From IMG/VR virus record IMGVR_UViG_2711768073_000011: a stretch of DNA of 11,213 nucleotides; one strand, written 5' to 3'. The stretch is from a virus. Taxonomy: Duplodnaviria > Heunggongvirae > Uroviricota > Caudoviricetes. The stretch's first letter is position 1, and every line of letters begins with the position of its first letter. The notes under the pieces were generated by a model. The model saw nothing but the letters and a program-made list of their open reading frames with translations, searched no databases and had not been told where the DNA came from. The translations under genes and the position numbers were made by a program. This document shows positions 1 through 11,213 of the stretch, in pieces.

Positions 1-207
1 GACGGACGAACACTGGTTCAGACCGTAACGGGATCGCTGGCGTGCGGCGTTCTTGCCATGGCCGTGGCCGGGTCGTTGCGCTTCTTCGGGTTTCCTGAAG
101 ATGCCGTGACGTTTATCGGCGCATCAATCGGTTTTATGGGTGCAGAGAAAGCACGCGACAAGGTTATTGCGGCCTTTAATCGCAGGGTGAAGGAGAAGGA
201 CGAATGA
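1..207 (+). CDS. holin, C-terminal fragment (5' end lies outside the window)
   Basis: Frame 1 is open from base 1 to TGA at 205-207 and reads ...TLVQTVTGSLACGVLAMAVAGSLRFFGFPEDAVTFIGASIGFMGAEKARDKVIAAFNRRVKEKDE*. It has small-residue hydrophobic stretches followed by a charged tail. Its stop overlaps the endolysin start (ATGA), and it sits immediately upstream of the endolysin. No start codon is visible in the window. Confidence 0.45.
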   Translation, partial: DGRTLVQTVTGSLACGVLAMAVAGSLRFFGFPEDAVTFIGASIGFMGAEKARDKVIAAFNRRVKEKDE

Positions 208-596
208 GCAACACATTTAAATTCAGCAGCCGGAGCGAAAAGAATTTGCAGGGCGTAAATCCTGATCTGGTGAAAGTGACCCGACGGGCACTGGAAATCT
301 CGGAAGTGGATTTTGGTATCACCGAAGGGTTGCGCAGCCGTTACCGCCAGAAGCAACTGGTGGCCACGGGTAAGAGCCAGACCATGAACAGCCGCCACCT
401 TACGGGGCATGCCGTGGATGTTGTGGCTTATATCGGCAGCCAGGTGTCATGGGAATGGCCGCTGTACGAAAAAATCGCAGCAGCATTCAGACAGGCCAGC
501 CGGGAACTGAATATTCCGGTGGAATGGGGCGGCGACTGGAAGACCCTGAAAGACGGACCGCATTTTCAGTTACCACACGGAGCCTATCCGGCATGA
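204..596 (+). CDS. endolysin, peptidase M15 (VanY-like L-alanyl-D-glutamate endopeptidase) family
   Basis: 130-aa ORF with an AGGAG Shine-Dalgarno about 8 nt upstream of the ATG. It contains the M15 zinc-binding signatures S-R-H-L-T-G-H-A-V-D and D-G-P-H-F-Q, and has the size typical of a small phage endolysin. It is followed directly by the spanin pair. Confidence 0.85.
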   Translation: MSNTFKFSSRSEKNLQGVNPDLVKVTRRALEISEVDFGITEGLRSRYRQKQLVATGKSQTMNSRHLTGHAVDVVAYIGSQVSWEWPLYEKIAAAFRQASRELNIPVEWGGDWKTLKDGPHFQLPHGAYPA

Positions 597-1000
597 AGCT
601 CTGGCCCACGCTTGGCGTCGCTTTCCTTCTGATTGCCGGATGGGAAACATCCATGCGTCTGTCGTGGTCGCTGGGCCGGGAGAACGCCAGAAACGAAGCG
701 CAGGCCAGCGCCCTGAAAAGTACCGCCGACACCCTGAATATCATCAGCGCCGGGGTACAGGATATGCAGCAGGTGCTGGCGCAACTCCGCGTGGAAAATC
801 AGCAACGCAATCAGGACGGAGAGGTAAGACGTGAACAGCTACGCAACGATATTGCAAAAGATGAATGCGCCCACGCTTTGCCTGACGCTCGTTTTACTGA
901 CAGGCTGCGCAGGCACGCAGAACGCGCCACTGCCAGCGCCGTCAGTCCGGCTTATACCGCAGACGCTGACCATACCGGTAACGCCGCCCCCCTTCCCTGA
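593..1000 (+). CDS. i-spanin (Rz / P2 LysB-like), inner-membrane subunit
   Basis: ATG at 593 overlaps the endolysin stop (ATGA). The product begins MKLWPTLGVAFLLIAGWETS, an N-terminal transmembrane segment, followed by a charged Q/R/E-rich, probably coiled-coil region. The ORF track's longer 449..1000 ORF is an in-frame upstream extension running through the endolysin, so the internal ATG is preferred. Confidence 0.75.
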   Translation: MKLWPTLGVAFLLIAGWETSMRLSWSLGRENARNEAQASALKSTADTLNIISAGVQDMQQVLAQLRVENQQRNQDGEVRREQLRNDIAKDECAHALPDARFTDRLRRHAERATASAVSPAYTADADHTGNAAPLP

Positions 1001-1151
1001 TACTCCCACATGGGGAAATCTCGGTATATGGGGCGACCGCCTTCTGGATGCACTGGAAACCTGTAACGCGGATAAACGGGCCATTGAATTACTGGAACAG
1101 CGCAGGCTGCAACGACTGAACAACGAGGACAACAACCATGCTGAAAACTGA
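861..1151 (+). CDS. o-spanin (Rz1 / P2 LysC-like) outer-membrane lipoprotein
   Basis: ORF in a different frame that starts inside the i-spanin gene and extends past its stop. From the second Met it reads MNAPTLCLTLVLLTGCAGTQNAPLPAPS, a signal peptide with an LTGC lipobox followed by a proline-rich mature part. The start could alternatively be the ATG at 831. The stop overlaps the start of R. Confidence 0.75.
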   Translation: MNAPTLCLTLVLLTGCAGTQNAPLPAPSVRLIPQTLTIPVTPPPFPDTPTWGNLGIWGDRLLDALETCNADKRAIELLEQRRLQRLNNEDNNHAEN

Positions 1152-1605
1152 TTCCCTGCGTGAAGCCATGACCCGTTCATGCCGATGGTGTCAGGCCAAC
1201 CCGGAAAAATTCACCATTTTCGTGGAGAGCGGCAACATTGAAACGACCGGAGAAACGCCCTCGTTTGTTTACCGCTATCAGATGGTGATGTTTGTCATGG
1301 ATTACGCCGGGGAGCTGGACGACCTCACGCTGCCGCTGCTGGCGTGGTTATCCGAAAATCAGCCACAGTTGTTGCTCAACCCTGAGCGTAATCAGGACAT
1401 CAAATTCTCCGCCGTTATCAATGACGATGACAGCGCCGATCTCCTGTTTACGCTCCCCCTGCGGGAACGCGTTCGCATCACGCGCAGCAGTCAGGGGACA
1501 CCGCAGGCAGAACACCTGCCGGAGCCAAAACCCCGCCTGCCATCTCCCGAAGGCGACTGGTCGCATGTATTCCAGGATGTGACGTGGGGTGAAAGCGATG
1601 GATAA
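1138..1605 (+). CDS. R: tail completion protein (P2 gpR-like)
   Basis: 155-aa ORF immediately after the lysis cassette and before S, the position gpR occupies in P2. The size matches my recollection of P2 gpR. It is translationally coupled to both neighbours. Confidence 0.8.
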   Translation: MLKTDSLREAMTRSCRWCQANPEKFTIFVESGNIETTGETPSFVYRYQMVMFVMDYAGELDDLTLPLLAWLSENQPQLLLNPERNQDIKFSAVINDDDSADLLFTLPLRERVRITRSSQGTPQAEHLPEPKPRLPSPEGDWSHVFQDVTWGESDG

Positions 1606-2233
1606 GGCATTCACCCGCGTGGATGAAACCTTTGAGGCTATCCGCGACAGCCTGAATCAGCAGGCCATCAATAACATCGCCAGAAAGCTGGCACAGGATT
1701 TACGCCGCGCCCAGCAGGCGCGTATCCGGTCACAGAAAGCGCCGGACGGGACCGCGTGGACACCACGCAGACGCCGCGTAACCCGGATACAGGAGCGCAT
1801 TCGCTTTATCTGGACTAACGAAGCACGCACGCTGAAAAACTGGCATCACGACACGGGGAAATACGGGCGAACCATTACCGGGTGGGATGAGGATAAAAAC
1901 AATATCCGCACGTTTTACCGGGATGACATCGACCGTTTTCTGGAAATACGCACCCGGCGCATCAACCAGGACAGCACAAAGCGCGTCCCCATGTTCGTAA
2001 AACTGCGCACCGCCCGCTACCTGAAAGCCCGTGCAGATGCTTCCGGTGTGACGGTGGGTTACAGCGGCGTGGCCGCACGTATTGCCCGCGTTCATCAGTT
2101 CGGTGAGCGCGATCAGGTTGCGCCGGGCATTTTCACCGATTACCCGGTACGTGAGCTGTTGGGCATCAGTCAGGCAGATGAACGCCTGATTTATAACACG
2201 GTGCTGGGCCGGATTGCGGAGGCTGTACGGTGA
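1598..2233 (+). CDS. S: tail completion / virion morphogenesis protein (P2 gpS-like)
   Basis: ORF between R and V. ATG at 1598 overlaps the R stop (ATGGATAA); a GTG at 1589 is an alternative start. Its stop overlaps the GTG start of V (GTGA). The call rests on position and coupling; the product is basic and Arg-rich. Confidence 0.75.
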   Translation: MDKAFTRVDETFEAIRDSLNQQAINNIARKLAQDLRRAQQARIRSQKAPDGTAWTPRRRRVTRIQERIRFIWTNEARTLKNWHHDTGKYGRTITGWDEDKNNIRTFYRDDIDRFLEIRTRRINQDSTKRVPMFVKLRTARYLKARADASGVTVGYSGVAARIARVHQFGERDQVAPGIFTDYPVRELLGISQADERLIYNTVLGRIAEAVR

Positions 2234-2545
2234 GCGCAGAACTCATGCGACTGCTGAGCAACATCATCCGCACTGGGATCATCTCTGAAGTTGATGAGAA
2301 GTCCTGGTGCGTGCGCGTTCGCAGCGGCGAACTGGAAACAGGCTGGTTGCGCTGGAACACCACGCGCGCGGGAGCCTTCAATGTGTGGCTGCCGCCATCA
2401 CCCGGCGAACAGGTGGTAATTGCCTGCATTGGCGGCAACCCGGAAACCGCCATGATAATTGGCAGCCTGTGGAGTGATGCCAATCCGGCCCCCGGCAAAA
2501 GCCTGAAAGAAATCGTGGTCAGCGCGCCGGATGGCGCGGTGTTCC
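2230..2545 (+). CDS. V: baseplate spike protein (P2 gpV-like), copy 1, 3'-truncated by the N gap
   Basis: GTG start overlapping the S stop; reads MSAELMRLLSNIIRTGIISEVDEKSWCVRV... up to the N run at 2546. Identical to the first 105 codons of the complete copy at 4066. Confidence 0.7.
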
Positions 2546-2556
2546 NNNNNNNNNNN
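2546..2556. other. assembly gap (11 N)
   Basis: Run of n characters lying exactly at the junction between duplicated blocks. Confidence 0.97.
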
Positions 2557-2974
2557 TAACGAAGCACGCACGCTGAAAAACTGGCATCACGACACGGGGA
2601 AATACGGGCGAACCATTACCGGGTGGGATGAGGATAAAAACAATATCCGCACGTTTTACCGGGATGACATCGACCGTTTTCTGGAAATACGCACCCGGCG
2701 CATCAACCAGGACAGCACAAAGCGCGTCCCCATGTTCGTAAAACTGCGCACCGCCCGCTACCTGAAAGCCCGTGCAGATGCTTCCGGTGTGACGGTGGGT
2801 TACAGCGGCGTGGCCGCACGTATTGCCCGCGTTCATCAGTTCGGTGAGCGCGATCAGGTTGCGCCGGGCATTTTCACCGATTACCCGGTACGTGAGCTGC
2901 TGGGTATCAGCCAGGCAGATGAGCGCCTGATTTATAACACGGTGCTGGGCCGGATTGCGGAGGCTGTACGGTGA
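2557..2974 (+). CDS. S: S-like gene, 5'-truncated fragment (divergent middle copy)
   Basis: Resumes S in frame at the equivalent of position 1816 straight after the N gap and ends at the same GTGA junction. Four synonymous differences from copy 1 lie near its 3' end. Confidence 0.65.
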
Positions 2975-3552
2975 GCGCAGAACTCATGCGACTGCTGAGC
3001 AATATCATCCGCACCGGGATCATCTCTGAAGTTGATGAGAAGTCCTGGCGCGTGCGCGTTCGCAGCGGCGAACTGGAAACAGGCTGGTTGCGCTGGAACA
3101 CCACGCGCGCGGGAGCCTTCAATGTGTGGCTGCCGCCATCACCCGGCGAACAGGTGGTAATTGCCTGCATTGGCGGCAACCCGGAAACCGCCATGATAAT
3201 TGGCAGCCTGTGGAGTGATGCCAATCCGGCCCCCGGCAAAAGCCTGAAAGAAATCGTGGTCAGCGCGCCGGATGGCGCGGTGTTCCGCTACGACGCAGAC
3301 GCTGGCGCACTGAGCGCCAGCGGCATGAAAACAGCCACCCTGCAGGCATCCGTCAGCGTGACACTGGATACGCCCGTCGTGGAATGCACAAACCTTCTGA
3401 GAACAGCGACGCTTGACGTCACAAAAGGGGGAAAGATGAGCGGCAATATCACGCACAGCGGCGGCGATTTCACCTCAAACGGCATCACAGTGCATACGCA
3501 TAAGCACGGTGGCGTTAAAGGTGGCAGCGATTCGACAGGAGGCCCGCAGTGA
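2971..3552 (+). CDS. V: baseplate spike protein (P2 gpV-like), divergent middle copy
   Basis: 193-aa ORF with a GTG start. The C-terminal region is Gly/Ser/Thr-rich and carries the motif VHTHKHGG, the His-x-His pattern found at the apex of gpV-type spikes. Differs from the copy at 4066 by C27R, N/D and D/N substitutions. Confidence 0.85.
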   Translation: MSAELMRLLSNIIRTGIISEVDEKSWRVRVRSGELETGWLRWNTTRAGAFNVWLPPSPGEQVVIACIGGNPETAMIIGSLWSDANPAPGKSLKEIVVSAPDGAVFRYDADAGALSASGMKTATLQASVSVTLDTPVVECTNLLRTATLDVTKGGKMSGNITHSGGDFTSNGITVHTHKHGGVKGGSDSTGGPQ

Positions 3553-3899
3553 CAACCCGCTACACAGGAATGAACCCGGACGGAACGGGAAACCTGAACG
3601 ATATGGAGCACCTGAAACAGTCAGTCAGGGACATCCTGACCACCCCGCTGGCCAGCCGGGTTATGCGACGGGAATATGGCAGCCTTGTGCCTGATTTGAT
3701 TGACGAACCCATGAATAACACCACGCGTCTGCAATGCATGAGTGCTGCCGTGATTGCGCTGACACGATGGGAACCCCGCATTGCCCTGGACGCCATCGAC
3801 GTTGTCTGGAAGGCAGGAGGCCGCGCCGGGGTGACGCTGTCGGGCACTGTCATGCAGACCATGCAGAATGTTGAATTAACCATCACGCTGAGGGAGTAA
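3549..3899 (+). CDS. W: baseplate wedge protein (P2 gpW / GPW-gp25 family), divergent middle copy
   Basis: 116-aa ORF (MTTRYTGMNPDG...) with GTG start overlapping the V stop (GTGA). Size and position match P2 gpW. Confidence 0.85.
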   Translation: MTTRYTGMNPDGTGNLNDMEHLKQSVRDILTTPLASRVMRREYGSLVPDLIDEPMNNTTRLQCMSAAVIALTRWEPRIALDAIDVVWKAGGRAGVTLSGTVMQTMQNVELTITLRE

Positions 3900-3902
3900 A
3901 TC

Positions 3903-4009
3903 ATGCCTGCCGTTGACCTTTCACAGTTACCGGACCCCGCCATCATCGCGGAGCCTGACTTTGAGGCAATTCTGGCTGACACAAAGGCCATGATGATTGC
4001 GTCCTATCC
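3903..4009 (+). CDS. J: baseplate protein J (P2 gpJ-like), 5' fragment truncated by the N gap
   Basis: ATG at 3903 preceded by GAGGGAG; reads MPAVDLSQLPDPAIIAEPDFEAILADTKAMMIASY before the N run. Same as the start of the complete J at 4998. Confidence 0.65.
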
Positions 4010-4019
4010 NNNNNNNNNN
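4010..4019. other. assembly gap (10 N)
   Basis: Run of n characters lying exactly at the junction between duplicated blocks. Confidence 0.97.
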
Positions 4020-4069
4020 GCCTGATTTATAACACGGTGCTGGGCCGGATTGCGGAGGCTGTACGGTGA
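4020..4069 (+). CDS. S: S-like gene, 3'-terminal fragment after the gap
   Basis: Last 16 codons of S (...LIYNTVLGRIAEAVR*) in frame, ending in the GTGA overlap with V. Identical to copy 1. Confidence 0.5.
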
Positions 4070-4647
4070 GCGCAGAACTCATGCGACTGCTGAGCAACAT
4101 CATCCGCACTGGGATCATCTCTGAAGTTGATGAGAAGTCCTGGTGCGTGCGCGTTCGCAGCGGCGAACTGGAAACAGGCTGGTTGCGCTGGAACACCACG
4201 CGCGCGGGAGCCTTCAATGTGTGGCTGCCGCCATCACCCGGCGAACAGGTGGTAATTGCCTGCATTGGCGGCAACCCGGAAACCGCCATGATAATTGGCA
4301 GCCTGTGGAGTGATGCCAATCCGGCCCCCGGCAAAAGCCTGAAAGAAATCGTGGTCAGCGCGCCGGATGGCGCGGTGTTCCGCTACGACGCGGACGCAGG
4401 CGCACTGAGCGCCAGCGGCATGAAAACGGCCACCCTGCAGGCATCCGTCAGTGTGACACTGGACACGCCCGTCGTGGAATGCACAGACCTTCTGAGAACG
4501 GCGACGCTTGACGTCACAAAAGGGGGAAAGATGAGCGGCAATATCACGCACAGCGGCGGCAATTTCACCTCAAACGGCATCACAGTGCATACGCATAAAC
4601 ACGGTGGCGTTAAAGGTGGCAGCGATTCGACAGGAGGCCCGCAGTGA
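4066..4647 (+). CDS. V: baseplate spike protein (P2 gpV-like)
   Basis: 193-aa ORF with GTG start. Its first 105 codons are identical to copy 1 at 2230. Carries the same VHTHKHGG apex motif. Confidence 0.88.
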   Translation: MSAELMRLLSNIIRTGIISEVDEKSWCVRVRSGELETGWLRWNTTRAGAFNVWLPPSPGEQVVIACIGGNPETAMIIGSLWSDANPAPGKSLKEIVVSAPDGAVFRYDADAGALSASGMKTATLQASVSVTLDTPVVECTDLLRTATLDVTKGGKMSGNITHSGGNFTSNGITVHTHKHGGVKGGSDSTGGPQ

Positions 4648-4994
4648 CAACCCGCTACACAGGAATGAACCCGGACGGAACGGGAAACCTGAACGATATG
4701 GAGCATCTGAAACAGTCAGTCAGGGACATCCTGACCACCCCGCTGGCAAGCCGGGTTATGCGACGGGAATATGGCAGCCTTGTGCCCGATTTAATTGACG
4801 AACCCATGAATAACACCACTCGTCTGCAATGCATGAGTGCTGCCGTGATTGCGCTGACACGATGGGAACCCCGCATTGCCCTGGACGCCATCGACGTTGT
4901 CTGGAAGGCAGGAGGCCGCGCCGGGGTGACGCTGTCGGGCACTGTCATGCAGACCATGCAGAATGTTGAATTAACCATCACGCTGAGGGAGTAA
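4644..4994 (+). CDS. W: baseplate wedge protein (P2 gpW / GPW-gp25 family)
   Basis: 116-aa ORF with GTGA overlap to V. The protein is the same as the middle copy; differences are synonymous. Confidence 0.88.
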   Translation: MTTRYTGMNPDGTGNLNDMEHLKQSVRDILTTPLASRVMRREYGSLVPDLIDEPMNNTTRLQCMSAAVIALTRWEPRIALDAIDVVWKAGGRAGVTLSGTVMQTMQNVELTITLRE

Positions 4995-4997
4995 ATC

Positions 4998-5894
4998 ATG
5001 CCTGCCGTTGACCTTTCACAGTTACCGGACCCCGCCATCATCGCGGAGCCTGACTTTGAGGCAATTCTGGCTGACACAAAGGCCATGATGATTGCGTCCT
5101 ATCCCGCCGAACAGCGTGAAGCCGTTTCCGCCGCGCTGGAGCTGGAATCGGAACCCCTTAACGTTATCGCTCAAACCATGTCGTTTCGTGAAATGCTGTT
5201 ACGCCAGCGGGTCAATGAGGGTGCACGCGCCTGCATGCTAAGCCACAGCGCCGGGACAGACCTGGACAACCTCGCGGGCAATATGAACACAAAGCGCCTG
5301 GTTATCACTCCGGCAACGGATACCACCGACGCAGTGATTGAAAGTGACACCTCGCTGAGACTACGGGCGCAACGGGCATATGACGGTCTGAGTGTTGCTG
5401 GCCCGTCAGGTGCATACGAGTATTTTGCACGCAGCGCCAGCGGTCTGGTACGCGATGCGCGGGCCATCAGCCCGTCTCCGGCCAACGTGACGGTTTCCAT
5501 CCTGTCCACTGAGGGCGACGGCACAGCAACGGAGGCGTTGCTTAATACCGTTCGCGCCGTTCTGAATGCAGAGGATACCCGCCCGGTGGCCGACCGCCTG
5601 ACCGTACAGAGCGCCAGCATCGTGACATGGCGGCTGAATGCAAAACTGTACTTTTACCCCGGTCCGGAATCCGAACCTATTCTGGCCGCGGCGGAATCGT
5701 CATTCAGGAAGTGGCTGGCTGAACAGGGGCTTATCGGTCAGGACGTGGCGTTGTCCGCCATTGCTGCCGCACTTCATGTACACGGCGTGCAACGCGTGGA
5801 GATAATCGAACCCACACAGAATATGGCCATCAGCGACATACAGGCGGCGCGCTGTGAGTCATTCACCATCAGCGAAGGTGGGCGTAATGAGTAA
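4998..5894 (+). CDS. J: baseplate assembly protein J (P2 gpJ-like)
   Basis: 298-aa ORF with a GAGGGAG Shine-Dalgarno. Size and position after W match P2 gpJ. Its stop overlaps the start of I. Confidence 0.9.
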   Translation: MPAVDLSQLPDPAIIAEPDFEAILADTKAMMIASYPAEQREAVSAALELESEPLNVIAQTMSFREMLLRQRVNEGARACMLSHSAGTDLDNLAGNMNTKRLVITPATDTTDAVIESDTSLRLRAQRAYDGLSVAGPSGAYEYFARSASGLVRDARAISPSPANVTVSILSTEGDGTATEALLNTVRAVLNAEDTRPVADRLTVQSASIVTWRLNAKLYFYPGPESEPILAAAESSFRKWLAEQGLIGQDVALSAIAAALHVHGVQRVEIIEPTQNMAISDIQAARCESFTISEGGRNE

Positions 5895-6417
5895 TTCACT
5901 GTTACCGCCATCAGCCAGCAATTTCATGCGTTGTGCCGAAGCTGTCGGAACGCGCATTACAGACATCCCGGTAGACCTCAACACGCTGTGGTCGCCGGAC
6001 ACCTGCCCGGTGCACCTGCTGCCTTATCTCGCCTGGGCATTTTCCGTTGACCGCTGGGATCGCAACTGGCCGGAAGAGACAAAACGACAGGTGATTCGTG
6101 ATGCATGGCTGATACACCGACACAAGGGAACCATCAGCGCACTGCGCCGGGCCATTGAGCCGCTGGGATACCTCATTCGTGTGTCTGAGTGGTGGGAGTT
6201 CGGCGGAGAACCGGGAACATTTACCGTTGAAGTGGGCACGCTGGACAGTGGCGTGACGGAGGAAATGTATCTGGAAATGGAGCGGTTGATTGCTGATGCC
6301 CGCCCGGTCAGCCGCCACATGACAGGGCTGAATATCATTCAGGAGATTCCGGGGGATATTTTCGCGGCGGCAGCAACTTACGACGGTGAAGTCATTACCA
6401 TTTATCCGGACGATTAA
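5887..6417 (+). CDS. I: tail / baseplate protein I (P2 gpI-like)
   Basis: ATG at 5887 (MSNSLLPPSASNF...) overlapping the J stop, giving 176 aa. The ORF track's longer form from 5854 is an upstream extension inside J. Confidence 0.85.
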   Translation: MSNSLLPPSASNFMRCAEAVGTRITDIPVDLNTLWSPDTCPVHLLPYLAWAFSVDRWDRNWPEETKRQVIRDAWLIHRHKGTISALRRAIEPLGYLIRVSEWWEFGGEPGTFTVEVGTLDSGVTEEMYLEMERLIADARPVSRHMTGLNIIQEIPGDIFAAAATYDGEVITIYPDD

Positions 6418-6419
6418 GC

Positions 6420-9011
6420 ATGAGTACCACAACACGAAAATTTAAAACCGTTATCACCGATACGGGTGCAAAAAAATTAGCTCAGGCAGCCGCGCCAGAT
6501 GGTAAGCCTGTCCGCCTGACTCATATGGCCGTGGGCGACGGTGGCGGCACGTTGCCCACACCAGACAGTAAGCAGACCCGTCTGGTGCATGAGGTGTGGC
6601 GACATACTGTTAATCGCGTCATCCTGGACGCAACACATCAGAACCGCATTATTGCGGAGCTGGTTATTCCTCCTGAAACGGGCGGATTCTGGATCCGGGA
6701 AATTGGTGTATTTGATGAGCACGGCGATTTGATCGCGGTGGGCAATACTGCGGAAAGTTACAAGCCAGCCGTTGCCGAAGGATCCGGACGTGTACAAACA
6801 TTTCGCACCATTCTGACCGTATCCAGCACTGCCACCGTGGCGCTTACCGTGGATAACACCATGGTTATGGCCACAGTGGATTACGTGAATGACAAACTGA
6901 AAGAACATGAACAGTCACGACGTCACCCGGACGCCTCGCTGACCGCAAAAGGCTTTGTTCAACTCAGTAGCGCCACCAACAGCACGTCTGAAACACTGGC
7001 CGCAACGCCGAAAGCGGTAAAGGCCGCGTATGACCTTGCTAACGGGAAATATACCGCACAGGACGCCACCATAGCGCGAAAAGGCCTTGTCCAGCTCAGT
7101 AGTGCCACCAACAGCACGTCTGAAACGCTCGCCGCAACGCCGAAAGCGGTAAAGGCAGCATATGACCTTGCTAACGGGAAATACACTGCACAGGACGCCA
7201 CCACAACGCGAAAAGGCCTTGTCCAGCTCAGTAGTGCCACCAACAGTGATTCTGAAACGCTTGCGGCAACGCCAAAGGCGGTAAAGGCAGCATATGACCT
7301 TGCTAACGGGAAATACACTGCACAGGACGCCACCACAGCGCGAAAAGGTCTTGTCCAGCTCAGTAGCGCCACCAACAGCACGTCTGAAGCATTGGCCGCA
7401 ACACCGAAAGCGGTAAAGGCCGCGTATGACCTTGCTAACGGGAAATACACTGCACAGGACGCCACCACAGCGCGAAAAGGTCTTGTCCAGCTCAGTAGCG
7501 TCACCAACAGCGATTCTGAAACGCTTGCGGCAACGCCAAAGGCGGTAAAGGCCGCGTATAACCTTGCTAACGGGAAATACACTGCACAGGATGCCACTAC
7601 AGCGCGAAAAGGTCTTGTCCAGCTCAGTAGCGCCACCAACAGTGATTCTGAAACGCTGGCCGCAACATCAAAAGCGGTGAAGTCTGCCTATGACAATGCT
7701 GAAAAACGTCTTCAGAAAGATCAGAACGGTGCGGATATTCCGGGAAAGGATACCTTCACGAAAAATATCGGTGCCTGTCGTGCTTATAGCGGCGCTTTGA
7801 GCACTGAAGCCGGAAACTGGACAACCGCTCAGTTTATTGAATGGCTGGATTCCCGTGGTGCATTTAATCATCCGTACTGGATGTGCAAAGGCTCATGGTC
7901 ATATGCAAATAACAAAATCATTACGGATACCGGATGTGGTGATATCCACCTGGCTGGTTGTGTCGTCGAGGTCATGGGAACTAAATCTGCAATCACTATC
8001 CGAGTAACCACGCCGACAACATCAAGTGGTGGCGGTACAACCAGCGCACAATTCACTTACATTAATCATGGGGACGGCTACTCCCCCGGCTGGCGTCGTG
8101 ACTGGAATCGTCAGGGCGACTCAATGACCGGAACGATTAATCAGGATGGCGGAAGCCAGAATGCCTATATGTCTACGGCCTTATGTTCAGGCACCAGAGG
8201 CGGCAAAAAATATCTCAGAAAGTTTCGTGGTGGAGAAGGAGATACTATCTGGCATGAAACAGTACAGGGCGGGGTAATTCGCTGGGCGACAGGAAACTAT
8301 GACGCTCAGGAAGAATTATCACTCAGCTCCGCTTATGGTCTCCGTTCAAGAGGTGAGATTACATCACTCAGTGCTAATGGTCTGCGCATTGCTTATGGCA
8401 ATTATGGATTCTTTATCAGGAATGATGGCGGCAGCACATATTTAATGCTGACGGCCTCTGGCGATAAATTTGGGACATGGAACGGCTTAAGACCGCTGAC
8501 TATCAATAACGCCAATGGCGGAGTGTCAATGGGGCATGGCCTGAGTGTTACAGGTGATATTGTCTCAAGTACCAAAGTACGTGCCGGTAGCGGGAAAAAG
8601 TTCACGGTCAGCAGCAGCAATACATCAACGAAGGAAGCCGCATTCAATTTGTGGGGAAACGCAAGTCGTCCTGTGGTGGCTGAATTAGGTGATGATGCAG
8701 GCTGGCATTTTTACAGTCAGAGAAATACAGATAACAGCATCACTTTTGCTGTTAACGGGCAGGTATCACCATCTAACTATGGCAACTTTGATTCACGCTA
8801 TGTCCGGGATATTAGACTTGGTGGCGCGTCATCCTATAAACCAGCAAATAACGGTACAACATGGACGCATCAGGCTCCATCTGGTTGCGTATATACCGGG
8901 ATTATCGTTCAGGATACAGGCTCAAACTCTGCCGATAATATTGGTGGTGTTTATTACAGACCAATTCAAAAAAATATTAATGGTACATGGTATAACGTAT
9001 CGAGTGTTTGA
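6420..9011 (+). CDS. H: tail fibre protein (P2 gpH-like) with an internal tandem repeat array
   Basis: 863-aa ORF. The N-terminal ~170 aa (MSTTTRKFKTVITDTGAKKLAQAAAP...HMAVGDGGG...IIAELVIPPE...EHEQSRRHPDASLTAKGF) matches what I recall of the conserved gpH N-terminal domain. It is followed by six 44-aa repeats and a Gly/Asn/Ser/Thr-rich distal region. Confidence 0.9.
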   Translation: MSTTTRKFKTVITDTGAKKLAQAAAPDGKPVRLTHMAVGDGGGTLPTPDSKQTRLVHEVWRHTVNRVILDATHQNRIIAELVIPPETGGFWIREIGVFDEHGDLIAVGNTAESYKPAVAEGSGRVQTFRTILTVSSTATVALTVDNTMVMATVDYVNDKLKEHEQSRRHPDASLTAKGFVQLSSATNSTSETLAATPKAVKAAYDLANGKYTAQDATIARKGLVQLSSATNSTSETLAATPKAVKAAYDLANGKYTAQDATTTRKGLVQLSSATNSDSETLAATPKAVKAAYDLANGKYTAQDATTARKGLVQLSSATNSTSEALAATPKAVKAAYDLANGKYTAQDATTARKGLVQLSSVTNSDSETLAATPKAVKAAYNLANGKYTAQDATTARKGLVQLSSATNSDSETLAATSKAVKSAYDNAEKRLQKDQNGADIPGKDTFTKNIGACRAYSGALSTEAGNWTTAQFIEWLDSRGAFNHPYWMCKGSWSYANNKIITDTGCGDIHLAGCVVEVMGTKSAITIRVTTPTTSSGGGTTSAQFTYINHGDGYSPGWRRDWNRQGDSMTGTINQDGGSQNAYMSTALCSGTRGGKKYLRKFRGGEGDTIWHETVQGGVIRWATGNYDAQEELSLSSAYGLRSRGEITSLSANGLRIAYGNYGFFIRNDGGSTYLMLTASGDKFGTWNGLRPLTINNANGGVSMGHGLSVTGDIVSSTKVRAGSGKKFTVSSSNTSTKEAAFNLWGNASRPVVAELGDDAGWHFYSQRNTDNSITFAVNGQVSPSNYGNFDSRYVRDIRLGGASSYKPANNGTTWTHQAPSGCVYTGIIVQDTGSNSADNIGGVYYRPIQKNINGTWYNVSSV
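6948..7700 (+). repeat. six tandem in-frame 132-bp repeats (44-aa KGLVQLSSATNS[TD]SETLAATPKAVKAAYDLANGKYTAQDATTAR units) inside H
   Basis: Unit starts at 6948, 7080, 7212, 7344, 7476 and 7608; the last unit decays after about 30 codons. The units are near-identical at protein level with scattered nucleotide differences. They resemble the short repeat motif known from phage tail fibres. Confidence 0.9.
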
Positions 9012-9013
9012 TT

Positions 9014-9547
9014 ATGATGCATTTAAAAAATATAAAACCGGGCAATCCAAAAACAAAAGAACAGTACCTGTTAACTAAAAACTCCGGCGTTGTCTGGTTA
9101 TTCGCTGAAGATGGTAAAAACTGGTATGAGGAACAAAAGAACTTTCAGCCAGACACCATAAAGATTGCATATGATGAAAATAATGTCATATGCGACGTGC
9201 AAACGGATGTAACTGCAATTTGCCCGGAAGGAAAAAGTGTTGTCGAGTTGCCTAATATTACAGCAAACCGACGCGCTGATATTTCAGGTAACTGGATGTT
9301 TAAAGATGGCTCAGTCATTAAACGTGTGTATACCGAAGAAGAGCAACGCTTGCAGGCTGAAAACCAGAAACAAAGGTTATTACAGCAGGCCAGAGAAAAA
9401 ACGCAGTTCTGGCAGACCCAGCTTGCATTAGGGATTATCAGTGATTCAGATAAGCAACAACTGATGCGCTGGATGCGGTACGTGCAACAAGTTGAGACCA
9501 CTGATACCACTGAATTACCCGTTACGTTCCCTGATCAACCAGAATAA
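9014..9547 (+). CDS. G: tail fibre assembly protein / chaperone (P2 gpG / Tfa family)
   Basis: ORF directly after H; the ATG at 9014 (or 9017) lies just after the H stop at 9009-9011, and the ORF track's TTG at 9008 is less likely. About 177 aa. The position and the Q/E-rich C-terminal part (QFWQTQLALGIISDSDKQQLMRWMRYVQQVE) are typical of Tfa proteins. Confidence 0.8.
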   Translation: MMHLKNIKPGNPKTKEQYLLTKNSGVVWLFAEDGKNWYEEQKNFQPDTIKIAYDENNVICDVQTDVTAICPEGKSVVELPNITANRRADISGNWMFKDGSVIKRVYTEEEQRLQAENQKQRLLQQAREKTQFWQTQLALGIISDSDKQQLMRWMRYVQQVETTDTTELPVTFPDQPE

Positions 9548-9551
9548 ACGA

Positions 9552-9590
9552 AAGGCCCGAATATCGGGCCTTATCGTTATTTCTGTTTAT
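9552..9590 (+). terminator. rho-independent terminator after G (possibly bidirectional)
   Basis: Stem aaggcccg (9552-9559) / cgggcctt (9565-9572) with loop aatat, followed by the T-rich tract atcgttatttctgtttat. It sits in the 68-bp gap between the convergent G and U genes. Confidence 0.6.
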
Positions 9591-9615
9591 CTAACTATTT
9601 GTGATTTGCGTTAAA

Positions 9616-10110
9616 TCAGAACAGTCCCTTAACAGAACTGACCGCACTGTTAAGGGATGACGCCACCTTATCTTTGAAGCCGGACAGCATATCGCTGAAC
9701 GATGAGGATTGCAGGCGCTCCCGCAAATCCTCATCACAGCGTTCAAGGGTCAGTGAAAATTCTATCTTTTTCGCCTTACCGTAGCGATCAAACTCGGAAC
9801 GGGTCGTATTCGTTCCGGTCAGGACATACATGCCGTAAATCTGCCCGACGCCATCAATCAGAGGCCAGGGGCGTCCTGTATACGCCTGCGTGGTCAGCAG
9901 CGACAGCGACACTTCGCCACCTGTAATTTCAGGATAAAGCACACCAGAAAGAACGATGCGATCATCACCTGCACCGATATACTGCCATCTTGCTGAACGG
10001 TTAACGCGTTCATTTTTTACATGCCGCCAGCTTTTGTTTTGCTGTAACTGCTGATGCGGCAATGTGCGCAGCTCAAAAACAAACATGCCGTAGATCATCA
10101 TCATGGCCAT
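9616..10110 (-). CDS. U: tail protein U (P2 gpU-like)
   Basis: 164-aa ORF on the - strand (MAMMMIYGMFVFELRTLPHQQ...GVLYPEITGG...WPLIDGVGQIYGMYV...KIEFSLTLERCDE). Motifs and size match my recollection of gpU, and it lies immediately after the tape measure gene on the same strand. Confidence 0.8.
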   Translation of the reverse strand: MAMMMIYGMFVFELRTLPHQQLQQNKSWRHVKNERVNRSARWQYIGAGDDRIVLSGVLYPEITGGEVSLSLLTTQAYTGRPWPLIDGVGQIYGMYVLTGTNTTRSEFDRYGKAKKIEFSLTLERCDEDLRERLQSSSFSDMLSGFKDKVASSLNSAVSSVKGLF

Positions 10111-10116
10111 GACTCC

Positions 10117-11213
10117 TCAATCTTTATCGTAAAAACTGCCACGCCCGGCACGGGTACGCCGATCCAGTTCTGCCCTGACCATTTCACCGACCAGTTTCGC
10201 CAGTTCGCGGGGATTCTGCGTAACAACGTTATGCAGATGAACATGAATTTCACCGCAAAATCCGGAGACAGCAGGCTCCCGGTTACGGGAAGTTGCAGGA
10301 ACTGATGCCACTGGCGATCGTATGGCCTCCGCCACCGGGCGGGAGCTGGCCGCAACAACAGGGACCAGCGCCGGAGGCAGCGGAGCCGGGACCACAGGTG
10401 TGATGTTGATTGCGGAAGCAGGCTTACTGACCTGCGCAATCTTCCGCTCCTGCCACTCCCCACGAACAGCAAGTGCGCGGGGCAGGTTCTTAAAGACAAT
10501 ATCGCCAGGGCCAATGCGTTTTTTCGTCTCATCAACCAGCTTACCTGTGTTATCAGCAATTTTGCTGAGTCTGCGTAGCGTCCCGGTATTGCTGTCTGTG
10601 AGCGGTTTGTTGTCTTTGGGTTTATCACCTCCGGTGCCATTGCCATTTTCCACAGGCTTCGGCGGATTGATTTTCGCAAGGTCCCCCTGAAGCAAGGCAA
10701 CCTTGTCCTGAAGAATGGCCGCACGCTGTGCGTCTTCGATTTTCTTGCGCGCCTTTTCCGCTTCATCCGGAAGGACGCCAAGTTTTTCAAGTATCCACGC
10801 CAGCGTATCCAGTAGCATTTTTGCAGGTGTCAGAACAAGTTGTAACGCACCGCCAAGAACGTTACCGAATATCTCGCCAGCACTGGTACATTTATCCAGC
10901 GTTTCCTTGCTGGACTCCATCGGTGACAGCAGCGATTTAAACCAGTTAAACACCTGGCTGATCCCGCTTCCGATTGCGTCAAAAACAGGACCAAACCGTT
11001 CAAAGGTTTCGCGCAACGGGGTCAGCCTTTCCATAATCCCGCTGAACACCCCGACAAAAAATGCCCTGATGGGATCCCAGTATTTCCAGATAAGAACGGC
11101 AGCTCCGGCAAGCGCAGCCACGATAAGACCAACCGGACTGATCAGCGCCCCGATAGCGCCTCCCAGTAAAGAAACGGAACCCGTCACCATTCCCCATAGT
11201 GCTGGCAGGACCC
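10117..11213 (-). CDS. T: tail tape measure protein (P2 gpT-like), C-terminal part; 5' end outside the window
   Basis: The - strand reading frame is open to the window edge; the ORF track's Met at 11190 is internal. It contains a hydrophobic stretch (GAIGALISPVGLIVAALAGAAVLIW) and charged, probably coiled regions typical of tape measure proteins, and lies directly upstream of U. Confidence 0.75.
   Translation of the reverse strand, partial: VLPALWGMVTGSVSLLGGAIGALISPVGLIVAALAGAAVLIWKYWDPIRAFFVGVFSGIMERLTPLRETFERFGPVFDAIGSGISQVFNWFKSLLSPMESSKETLDKCTSAGEIFGNVLGGALQLVLTPAKMLLDTLAWILEKLGVLPDEAEKARKKIEDAQRAAILQDKVALLQGDLAKINPPKPVENGNGTGGDKPKDNKPLTDSNTGTLRRLSKIADNTGKLVDETKKRIGPGDIVFKNLPRALAVRGEWQERKIAQVSKPASAINITPVVPAPLPPALVPVVAASSRPVAEAIRSPVASVPATSRNREPAVSGFCGEIHVHLHNVVTQNPRELAKLVGEMVRAELDRRTRAGRGSFYDKD

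Follow-up and report, generated by a model that had tools for sequence, protein, structure and literature searches.

The window analysed here, an 11,213-nucleotide stretch of tailed-phage DNA, is a P88-like Xuanwuvirus (Peduoviridae) prophage of Escherichia coli. Over the covered parts its backbone is 96.7-97.3% identical to PhiR44_2, 500465-2, P884B11, 520873 and P88, identity to P88-like phages running at 95-97% across positions 1-7288 and again from 9605, and its genes follow the P88 order (...I-H-G...U-T), with T and U converging on the fibre locus. This locus (Table 1) comprises the tail fibre gene H, with gene I (PF09684) directly upstream, the chaperone gene G, a hairpin, a short spacer, and the gpU gene, which is native Xuanwuvirus backbone resuming and forms the right edge of the variable region. 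H is of the P2 gpH type, its PF12571 domain being followed by PF03406 in six stretches (E 1e-114) and, at residues 631-695, by PF21446. G, which comes right after H and carries PF02413, is a tail fibre chaperone of the Caudo_TAP/TfaMu kind; RefSeq starts it at the ATG 3 nt past the H stop, and not at TTG 9008, as first proposed. An Rfam scan of the whole window returned no family, and neither five minus-strand or alternate-frame ORFs within 7668-9510 nor a 226-aa ORF through the repeats gave a Pfam match at the gathering score, all being treated as spurious.

Table 1. Features of the tail fibre locus and the matches by which they were assigned.
Feature	Position in window	Strand	Evidence
Tail fibre gene H, 863 aa (P2 gpH / Mu S type)	6420..9011	+	PF12571, PF03406 (6 repeats), PF21446; PHROG tail fibre families
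N-terminal baseplate-attachment (tail-collar) domain	6420..6947	+	PF12571 E 6e-54
Fibre repeat array, 5.7 tandem copies of 132 nt (44 aa)	6947..7694	+	Tandem Repeats Finder: period 132, 89% matches; PF03406, 6 stretches
Distal shaft, Mu S'-like proximal domain and T4 gp34-type trimerisation domain (~8310-8504)	7695..8800	+	PDB 8ju3 (Mu S/S'), 5yvq_A, T4 gp34 chains
Fibre tip, inferred receptor-binding end, separate module	8808..9011	+	P37 identity falls to 0.42-0.62; YpM_41 alternate cassette 84-96% nt
Tail fibre assembly chaperone G, 177 aa (TfaMu / U' type)	9014..9547	+	PF02413 E 2.5e-33; PDB 5yvq_B (Mu U) E 7e-60; phrog_136
GC-rich hairpin, T runs on both strands	9552..9572		Terminator scan, both strands
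Short spacer	9573..9604		Past the hairpin, 20/33 bases agree with Mu at the equivalent register (shuffle p ~0.0015)
gpU tail gene	9616..10110	-	PF06995; 96-97% nt identity to P88, 503458, PhiR44_2; gene order as in P88

The locus is a common one. Nine complete E. coli genomes are collinear with positions 6420-9615 at 99.5-99.9% identity and further ones at 96-99%, eight IMG/VR contigs carry the same stretch, and RefSeq annotates H as "tail fiber protein" in the E. coli genomes at 99.5-99.9%. As the window is scaffolded from N-joined, redundant pieces, the mosaic described below might be an assembly artefact with a chimeric H-G join, and runs of N with duplicated flanks do occur at 2546-2556 and 4010-4019; against this, 4020-11213 is free of Ns and the collinear genomes and contigs carry the same arrangement, which leaves an artefact scarcely credible. 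A second copy of tip and G in one E. coli genome (H97), considered as a different genetic context, was set aside once it proved to be this prophage type again, with H interrupted by an IS3 insertion.

The earlier note had described a change from GC-rich to AT-richer sequence from sampled lines, which on recomputation (60 nt each) have GC contents of 0.633 (5400), 0.45 (7700), 0.383 (7870) and 0.30 (9000), and sliding GC, third-position GC (GC3) and change-point analysis agree that the shift is real. In sliding 300-nt windows GC is 0.53-0.63 from position 1 to ~7500, 0.47-0.51 in 7651-8700 and down to 0.38-0.44 in 8701-9600, recovering to 0.50-0.59 past ~9600, and the best two-change-point segment is 7641-10140 (log-likelihood ratio 34.7, against a maximum of 10.4 among 30 shuffles). 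The AT-richer region had been drawn from ~7700 through G; its extent needs redrawing, as the drop comes in two steps, at ~7650 and at ~8750, and continues beyond G into the spacer and U. GC3 follows a similar course, from 0.61-0.70 in genes V, W, J and I through 0.53-0.54 in the N-terminus and repeats of H to 0.44 in H 7695-8351, 0.40 in H 8352-9011 and 0.42 in G, with 0.56 in U. The distal half of H is also, as previously remarked, rich in Gly, Asn, Ser, Thr, Trp and Tyr (48.7% together, versus 30.0% in the N-terminus). Without any exchange of DNA, a fibre gene that evolves fast but is inherited vertically might become AT-rich through its amino-acid content or through selection. Amino-acid content does explain part of the drop, the GC expected under backbone codon usage being somewhat lower for distal H, tip and G (0.50-0.55) than for the H N-terminus and repeats (0.56-0.57), and the drop recurs in every relative. 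When the identical amino acids are re-coded with backbone codon usage, however, the expected GC3 is 0.62, whereas the observed values, spanning 0.28-0.45, are 0.445 for H residues 426-796 (z -6.9), 0.284 for the tip, the lowest of the segments (z -5.7), and 0.424 for G (z -5.5), so that synonymous sites, and not amino-acid content, account for most of the shift. Since P88, 503458, PhiR44_2, P37 and Mu have this AT-rich drop in their own cassettes too, the bias is no sign of recent import and marks instead a common cassette pool.

Exchange itself is read from discordant relationships. Separate protein searches with H residues 1-176, H residues 426-795 and G found their best matches in three different phage groups, as the earlier note had predicted for the parts of H and G. 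Residues 1-176 are 98.9% identical to Xuanwuvirus 503458, with nine records at 95-99% and one at 90-95%, and P2-type Peduovirus and relatives, among the matches listed below the top one, reach at most 68%. Residues 426-795 are 98.9% identical to the Yersinia Peduovirus phages vB_YpM_46 and P37, the remaining matches (P1, Mu S', T4-type fibres, a lambdoid side fibre) being partial only. G has no match above 77%, the best being in Mu-like Yersinia phages, followed by U' of Mu, D108, P1 and P7 at 70-72%. At the nucleotide level (50-nt windows) the N-terminal tail-collar domain, a native Xuanwuvirus module, is 96-100% identical to P88 and 503458 and 52-78% identical to P37 over 6420-6947. Identity to the former two then falls to 82-94% inside the repeats and that to P37 rises to 94-100%, holding at 96-100% in nearly every window from 7607 to ~8750 (one window 0.94) and falling to 42-62% in the tip. 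The switch from P88-like to P37-like sequence, and thus the left junction, lies at ~6950-7000, where the repeat array starts, and not at 7700 as had been thought; a second junction lies near 8770-8810. Adjoining segments closest to different lineages and separated by sharp identity switches identify a horizontally exchanged cassette. Faster divergence cannot make a segment more similar to a different genus, so a distal shaft 96-100% identical to P37 nearly throughout, beside an N-terminus at only 52-78%, contradicts the no-exchange account, which we regard as very improbable. Homogenisation of the repeats makes the junction within them less sharp.

Beyond the shaft the affinities change again. 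The tip is 93% identical in amino acids to the alternate cassette of YpM_41, 82% to PhiR44_2 and 59% to P37; the front of G is likewise nearest to YpM_41 and its rear to Mu-like YpM_3, and in a set of 91 loci variation in the tip goes with that in the front of G and not with that in the rear. The shaft, the tip with the front of G, and the rear of G thus have different nearest relatives. An exchanged cassette on a native N-terminus, as proposed earlier, is borne out, only not as a single distal-H-plus-G unit, there being at least three modules; and the accompanying idea of a swap between unrelated phages fits the tip and G (Mu-like, P1-like), whereas the donor of the shaft is another Peduoviridae genus. 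The junction within G is not clean, identity to YpM_41 dropping already at ~9150 and that to YpM_3 rising only at ~9300. A scan of genome contigs with G, which gave just two loci, an odd 'Vagococcus' record among them, was unhelpful for the donor, and the direction and order of the exchanges are not readable from the data.

The region is, with high probability, the receptor-recognition end (distal H plus chaperone G) of the P88-like prophage, built as a patchwork of recombined modules. The native N-terminal domain would anchor a trimeric fibre to the baseplate, the six 44-residue repeats would form the proximal shaft, and the distal shaft and tip would contact the host surface, probably the LPS core if P2, Mu and P1 are a guide. 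In P88, fibre residues 716-746 set host range, as established by experiment (PMC5285337); they map to window positions 8838-8954, inside the tip. The host-range role assigned to this region in the earlier note therefore has experimental backing in the type phage, and distal H is the presumptive receptor-binding end and host-range determinant by analogy with P88. The Mu chaperone attaches to the fibre by its N-terminal domain, and its C-terminal domain is proposed to trimerise (summarised in PMC9608196). From homology and this account of Mu, G is predicted to be a fibre-binding chaperone for trimer folding of the tip, its N-terminal domain binding the tip and its helical C-terminal domain driving the folding, as for Mu U; the co-variation of tip and G front across loci is consistent with such a role. 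The patchwork probably arose by recombination at short conserved stretches, the first junction falling at the repeat array, the second at the motif NYGNFDSRYVRDxRLG and at least one more inside G, with the AT-richer fibre/chaperone cassette pool common to P2-like, Mu-like and P1-like phages as the likely source.

It has been textbook knowledge since 1992 that P2, Mu and P1 exchange fibre ends and chaperones; distal H and G of P2 are reportedly homologous to S and U of both Mu and P1, a homology taken as evidence of horizontal exchange. The H-G host-range cassette is real but of a kind long known; RefSeq genomes already carry annotations of its exact sequence, and no new principle follows from it. 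What the analysis provides is a module map of a common E. coli prophage fibre (anchor, repeats, shaft, tip, chaperone front and rear), a practical aid where host range in P2-like phages and tailocins is to be predicted or re-engineered. P2 itself carries H-G as a fixed, non-invertible pair, with native N-terminal collar domain and fibre repeats, and in the window, too, H-G is a fixed pair in a P2-family phage; P2 H matches it at 85% over 7695-8068, and P2 G is 59% identical to its G. It differs from P2 in backbone genus, in the convergence of T and U on G, in having six repeats, a number that is four or fewer in relatives and two or three in P2, in the tip, and in a chaperone C-terminal end of U' type, that of P2 being of U type. 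With Mu, an unrelated phage family, it shares the central hairpin, a distal H alignable both to Mu S', over residues 177-333 (domain E 8e-70), and to Mu S, over its middle and tip, and a G that aligns end to end (residues 1-176) with Mu U (5YVQ, E 7e-60) and is 71% identical to U'; unlike Mu, it has no inversion system, and it mixes an S'-like proximal domain, an S-like tip and a U'-like chaperone C-terminus. P37 and vB_YpM_46 match the last repeat and shaft (7607 to ~8790) at 94-100% per 50-nt window, but J, I and the H N-terminus of P37 are only 52-78% identical and its tip 59% in amino acids, and G in both has a U-type C-terminus. P88 and 503458 share the backbone, the gene order and the H N-terminal domain (~98-99%), yet distal H is not P88-like, reaching only 74% over ~400 nt to the alternate Hv'.

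P88 and 503458 also differ in that their cassettes come as an opposed pair, accompanied by a DNA invertase and two crossover sites in inverted orientation; of all this the window has a single cassette only. Paired crossover sites occur in P88, 503458, Mu, YpM_3 and YpM_41, all five with an adjacent annotated invertase gene. Phase variation still driven by an invertase, as in the Mu G and P1 C segments, is suggested for this host-range cassette by so exact a counterpart at the same place in close relatives, and by homology to the variable Mu S' and P88 Hv' that begins at 7713, ~45 nt past the crossover position of those phages. Din-family systems, though, have two inverted ~26-bp crossover sites with the core AAACCNNGGTTT, one of them within the fibre gene, and no core AAACCNNGGTTT with up to two mismatches occurs in positions 6900-9700, in or beside H-G; the window likewise holds no invertase gene and no second opposed fibre-end/chaperone cassette, and an invertase acting in trans would still require two inverted sites. 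Active switching is thus most improbable. The G-U gap, where P88 and 503458 have the invertase and second cassette, is only 68 nt long and without an ORF, and a single cassette is fixed here, probably after loss of the second cassette and invertase from a Gin/Pin-type invertible segment such as close relatives keep.

What lies in that gap is consistent with such a loss. The hairpin, likely a terminator working both ways between the H-G and T-U operons, which converge here, is kept at the same place 3' of the chaperone gene in Mu, YpM_3, YpM_41, P88, 503458 and PhiR44_2, and in the five relatives with an invertible segment it sits between two chaperone genes. The spacer behind it, after which backbone homology to P88 restarts at 9605, may be what decay has left of the 3' end of an opposite-facing second chaperone gene; the resemblance, at 20 of 33 bases, is no more than suggestive, and comes from the Mu-type spacer only, the same test against the YpM_3 spacer being not significant (p 0.96). 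We tentatively suggest, with somewhat less than even confidence, that the unit of exchange is smaller than a gene, the tip moving with the fibre-binding N-terminal part of G only and the C-terminal trimerisation part being shuffled separately, and that the cassette derives by deletion from a Gin/Pin-type invertible segment, of which the central hairpin and ~30 nt of the lost partner gene were kept. In PhiR44_2, where a spacer of ~250 nt separates G from U, the 3' end of a second chaperone gene survives in reversed orientation just past the hairpin.

The window carries the lysis-to-tail region of a P2-family prophage, whose backbone belongs to Xuanwuvirus (P88-like Peduoviridae; 96.7-97.3% identity to PhiR44_2, 500465-2, P884B11, 520873 and P88 by megablast) and whose convergent T-U genes beyond the fibre locus retain the native Xuanwuvirus arrangement. 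Nine complete E. coli genomes are collinear with 6420-9615 at 99.5-99.9% identity, which excludes, for this region, that the tail fibre gene H and its chaperone gene G were brought together by chimeric assembly. In these genomes the two genes are annotated as "tail fiber protein" and "tail fiber assembly protein", the annotated start of G being an ATG equivalent to window position 9014.

Features of the fibre locus and its surroundings, in window positions
Feature	Position	Strand	Basis or content
R, S, V, W, J, I, then H	upstream to 9011		Pfam
H, tail fibre	6420-9011		PF12571 collar domain, six PF03406 repeats, PF21446 (Pfam)
Repeat array of H	6947-7694		5.7 units of 132 nt
Shaft of H	7695-8800
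Tip of H	8808-9011
G, Caudo_TAP chaperone	directly after H		Pfam
Hairpin	9552-9572
gpU and tape measure	downstream of G (gpU, 9616-10110)	minus

In 300-nt windows, GC lies at 0.53-0.63 up to ~7500, at 0.47-0.51 over 7651-8700 and at 0.38-0.44 over 8701-9600, and recovers beyond. This confirms the shift that an earlier note had read from sampled lines (recomputed here as 0.63, 0.45, 0.38 and 0.30) as the mark of a swapped receptor-binding cassette at 7700-9547, and the residue bias it described in the distal half of H is likewise borne out (G, N, S, T, W and Y, 48.7% vs. 30.0%). GC at third codon positions (GC3) is 0.61-0.70 in V, W, J and I, 0.44 and 0.40 in distal H, and 0.42 in G, against 0.62 expected with amino acids fixed and backbone codon usage, a deficit with z of -6.9 for the shaft, -5.7 for the tip and -5.5 for G. 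Amino-acid bias or rapid vertical divergence is excluded as the source of the AT-richness by this deficit at synonymous sites, and also by the near identity of the shaft to that of another genus. A two-change-point fit gave 7641-10140 as the best segment (log-likelihood ratio 34.7; shuffles, at most 10.4). The AT-rich pattern is, moreover, common to the cassettes of P88, 503458, PhiR44_2, P37 and Mu, where the baseplate genes tabulated (V, J, I; gp48 in Mu) have GC3 of 0.56-0.69 and distal H, G and any second cassette or invertase mostly 0.32-0.46 (the exception being Mu Sv', 0.52). The composition is therefore a property of the whole cassette pool, and low GC alone gives no date for import into this phage. 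The best low-GC segment extends to ~10140 and so takes in gpU (GC 0.50, below the baseplate genes), which despite its reduced GC is 96-97% identical to its counterparts in other Xuanwuvirus phages; part of the low-GC tract is therefore not exchanged DNA.

Separate tblastn queries with H 1-176, H 426-795 and G returned three different lineage distributions. H 1-176 matched Xuanwuvirus best (98.9%), with nine records at 95-99%, one at 90-95% and all others at 80% or below (Peduovirus, at most 68% among the matches listed), while H 426-795 was closest to Yersinia Peduovirus (98.9%), its remaining matches, to P1, Mu S', T4-type long fibres and a lambdoid side fibre, all being partial. The top identity for G did not exceed 77%, with Mu-like Yersinia phages first, followed by U' of Mu, D108, P1, P7 and D6. 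Composition is thus not uniform and the parts share no single closest lineage, and the exchanged-cassette claim is correct in substance. That P2, Mu and P1 have exchanged fibre ends and chaperones was reportedly described in 1992; the H-G cassette is a textbook case, already known, and its sequence is already present in RefSeq. What is added here is a finer module map.

From 5854 to ~6950, 50-nt windows are 92-100% identical to P88/503458 and 52-78% to the Yersinia Peduovirus P37, and from ~7000 P37 rises to 94-98% as P88 and 503458 fall to 82-94%. Among the repeat units, number 6 shares 99% identity with the last P37 unit, and units 2-4 match a P37 unit at 92-96%. Almost all windows up to ~8750 keep 96-100% identity to P37 (one window, 0.94) before it drops to 0.42-0.62 over 8807-8957, the switch falling at a conserved NYGNFDSRYVRDxRLG motif that starts at ~8772, a coordinate derived by hand from the alignment of H with the P88 fibre. 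From 8807 to ~9150 the nearest relative is the alternate cassette adjoining hin in the Yersinia phage vB_YpM_41 (84-96%), and in the rear of G (9300-9500) it is the Mu-like phage vB_YpM_3 (82-90%), the C-terminal end of G being of U' rather than U/P2-G type. Amino acid identity of the tip is 93% to the vB_YpM_41 alternate cassette, 82% to PhiR44_2, 59% to P37, 49% to Mu S and 39% to Mu S'. In a collection of 91 loci, wherever the tip matched well the match to the front of G was also raised, and loci matching the rear of G at 84% had no tip match.

P88, 503458, Mu, vB_YpM_3 and vB_YpM_41 each have an invertase gene, a pair of opposed cassettes and a pair of inverted crossover sites (core AAACC-NN-GGTTT), whereas a search of the window for a crossover site, an invertase and a second cassette found none, which excludes an active inversion switch at H-G. 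Homology to the variable parts of Mu S', P88 Hv' and the vB_YpM_41 alternate cassette begins at 7713, ~45 nt past the crossover-site position in those phages, and the onset of the GC shift is therefore the classical constant/variable border. The boundary proposed earlier at ~7700 thus stands as that border of the fibre family, but not as a recombination junction in this phage. Located 3' of G is the same hairpin that separates the two opposed chaperone genes of invertible segments, and it lies likewise 3' of G in PhiR44_2. There (locus L001, ~9380-9630), the ~250-nt G-U spacer opens, directly after the hairpin, with the reversed 3' end of a second, U'-type chaperone gene, a relic of a lost invertible-segment partner. 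Together with the post-hairpin bases of the window, 20 of 33 of which match the Mu partner gene (p ~0.0015), this makes it plausible, if weakly supported, that half of an invertible segment was lost here too.

By analogy with P2, Mu and P1, the LPS core would be the candidate receptor of H. In PDB sequence searches, distal H matches Mu S/S' (8ju3, 5yvq_A) and T4 gp34, and G matches Mu U (5yvq_B, E 7e-60). Swapping residues 716-746 of the P88 fibre altered host range (PMC5285337), and these residues align with H 807-845 (nt 8838-8954), within the tip module.

The repeat array is longer than in P88, 503458 and P37, which have two full units and one partial, and in some E. coli genomes the H-G match comes in two pieces and is 264 nt (two units) shorter; shaft length therefore varies with repeat number. 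N runs at 2546-2556 and 4010-4019 mark the window as a scaffold of three N-joined pieces. The middle one, 2557-4009, is a redundant, slightly divergent copy of sequence on either side (99.0% identical to 1816-2545, 98.4% to 4020-5104), and 4020-4381 is exactly identical to 2184-2545. What looks like a triplicated V and a duplicated W is therefore an artefact of assembly, the redundant pieces perhaps stemming from two similar prophages or strains. A metagenome viral contig (L018, IMGVR_UViG_3300015179_000014, positions 1-5658) matches Peduovirus P37 at 89% in J, I and the H N-terminus and, from the repeats on (window 7079-11213), is 97% identical to the window, Xuanwuvirus U and T included; the contig represents a natural hybrid joined within the repeats, or else an assembly chimera. 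A P88-like prophage also occurs on a 226-kb contig of an assembly labelled "Vagococcus sp. WN89Y" (L010, NZ_JBQPOM010000071.1; nucleotide identity to the window 94% in J and 93% in U), and its enterobacterial composition (locus GC 0.54) makes contamination or mislabelling likely. In E. coli HCP5S3_I2 (L008, 6820-8048), which has the same prophage type, an IS3-family transposase lies inside H, and the insertion interrupts the fibre gene immediately 5' of an identical tip and G.
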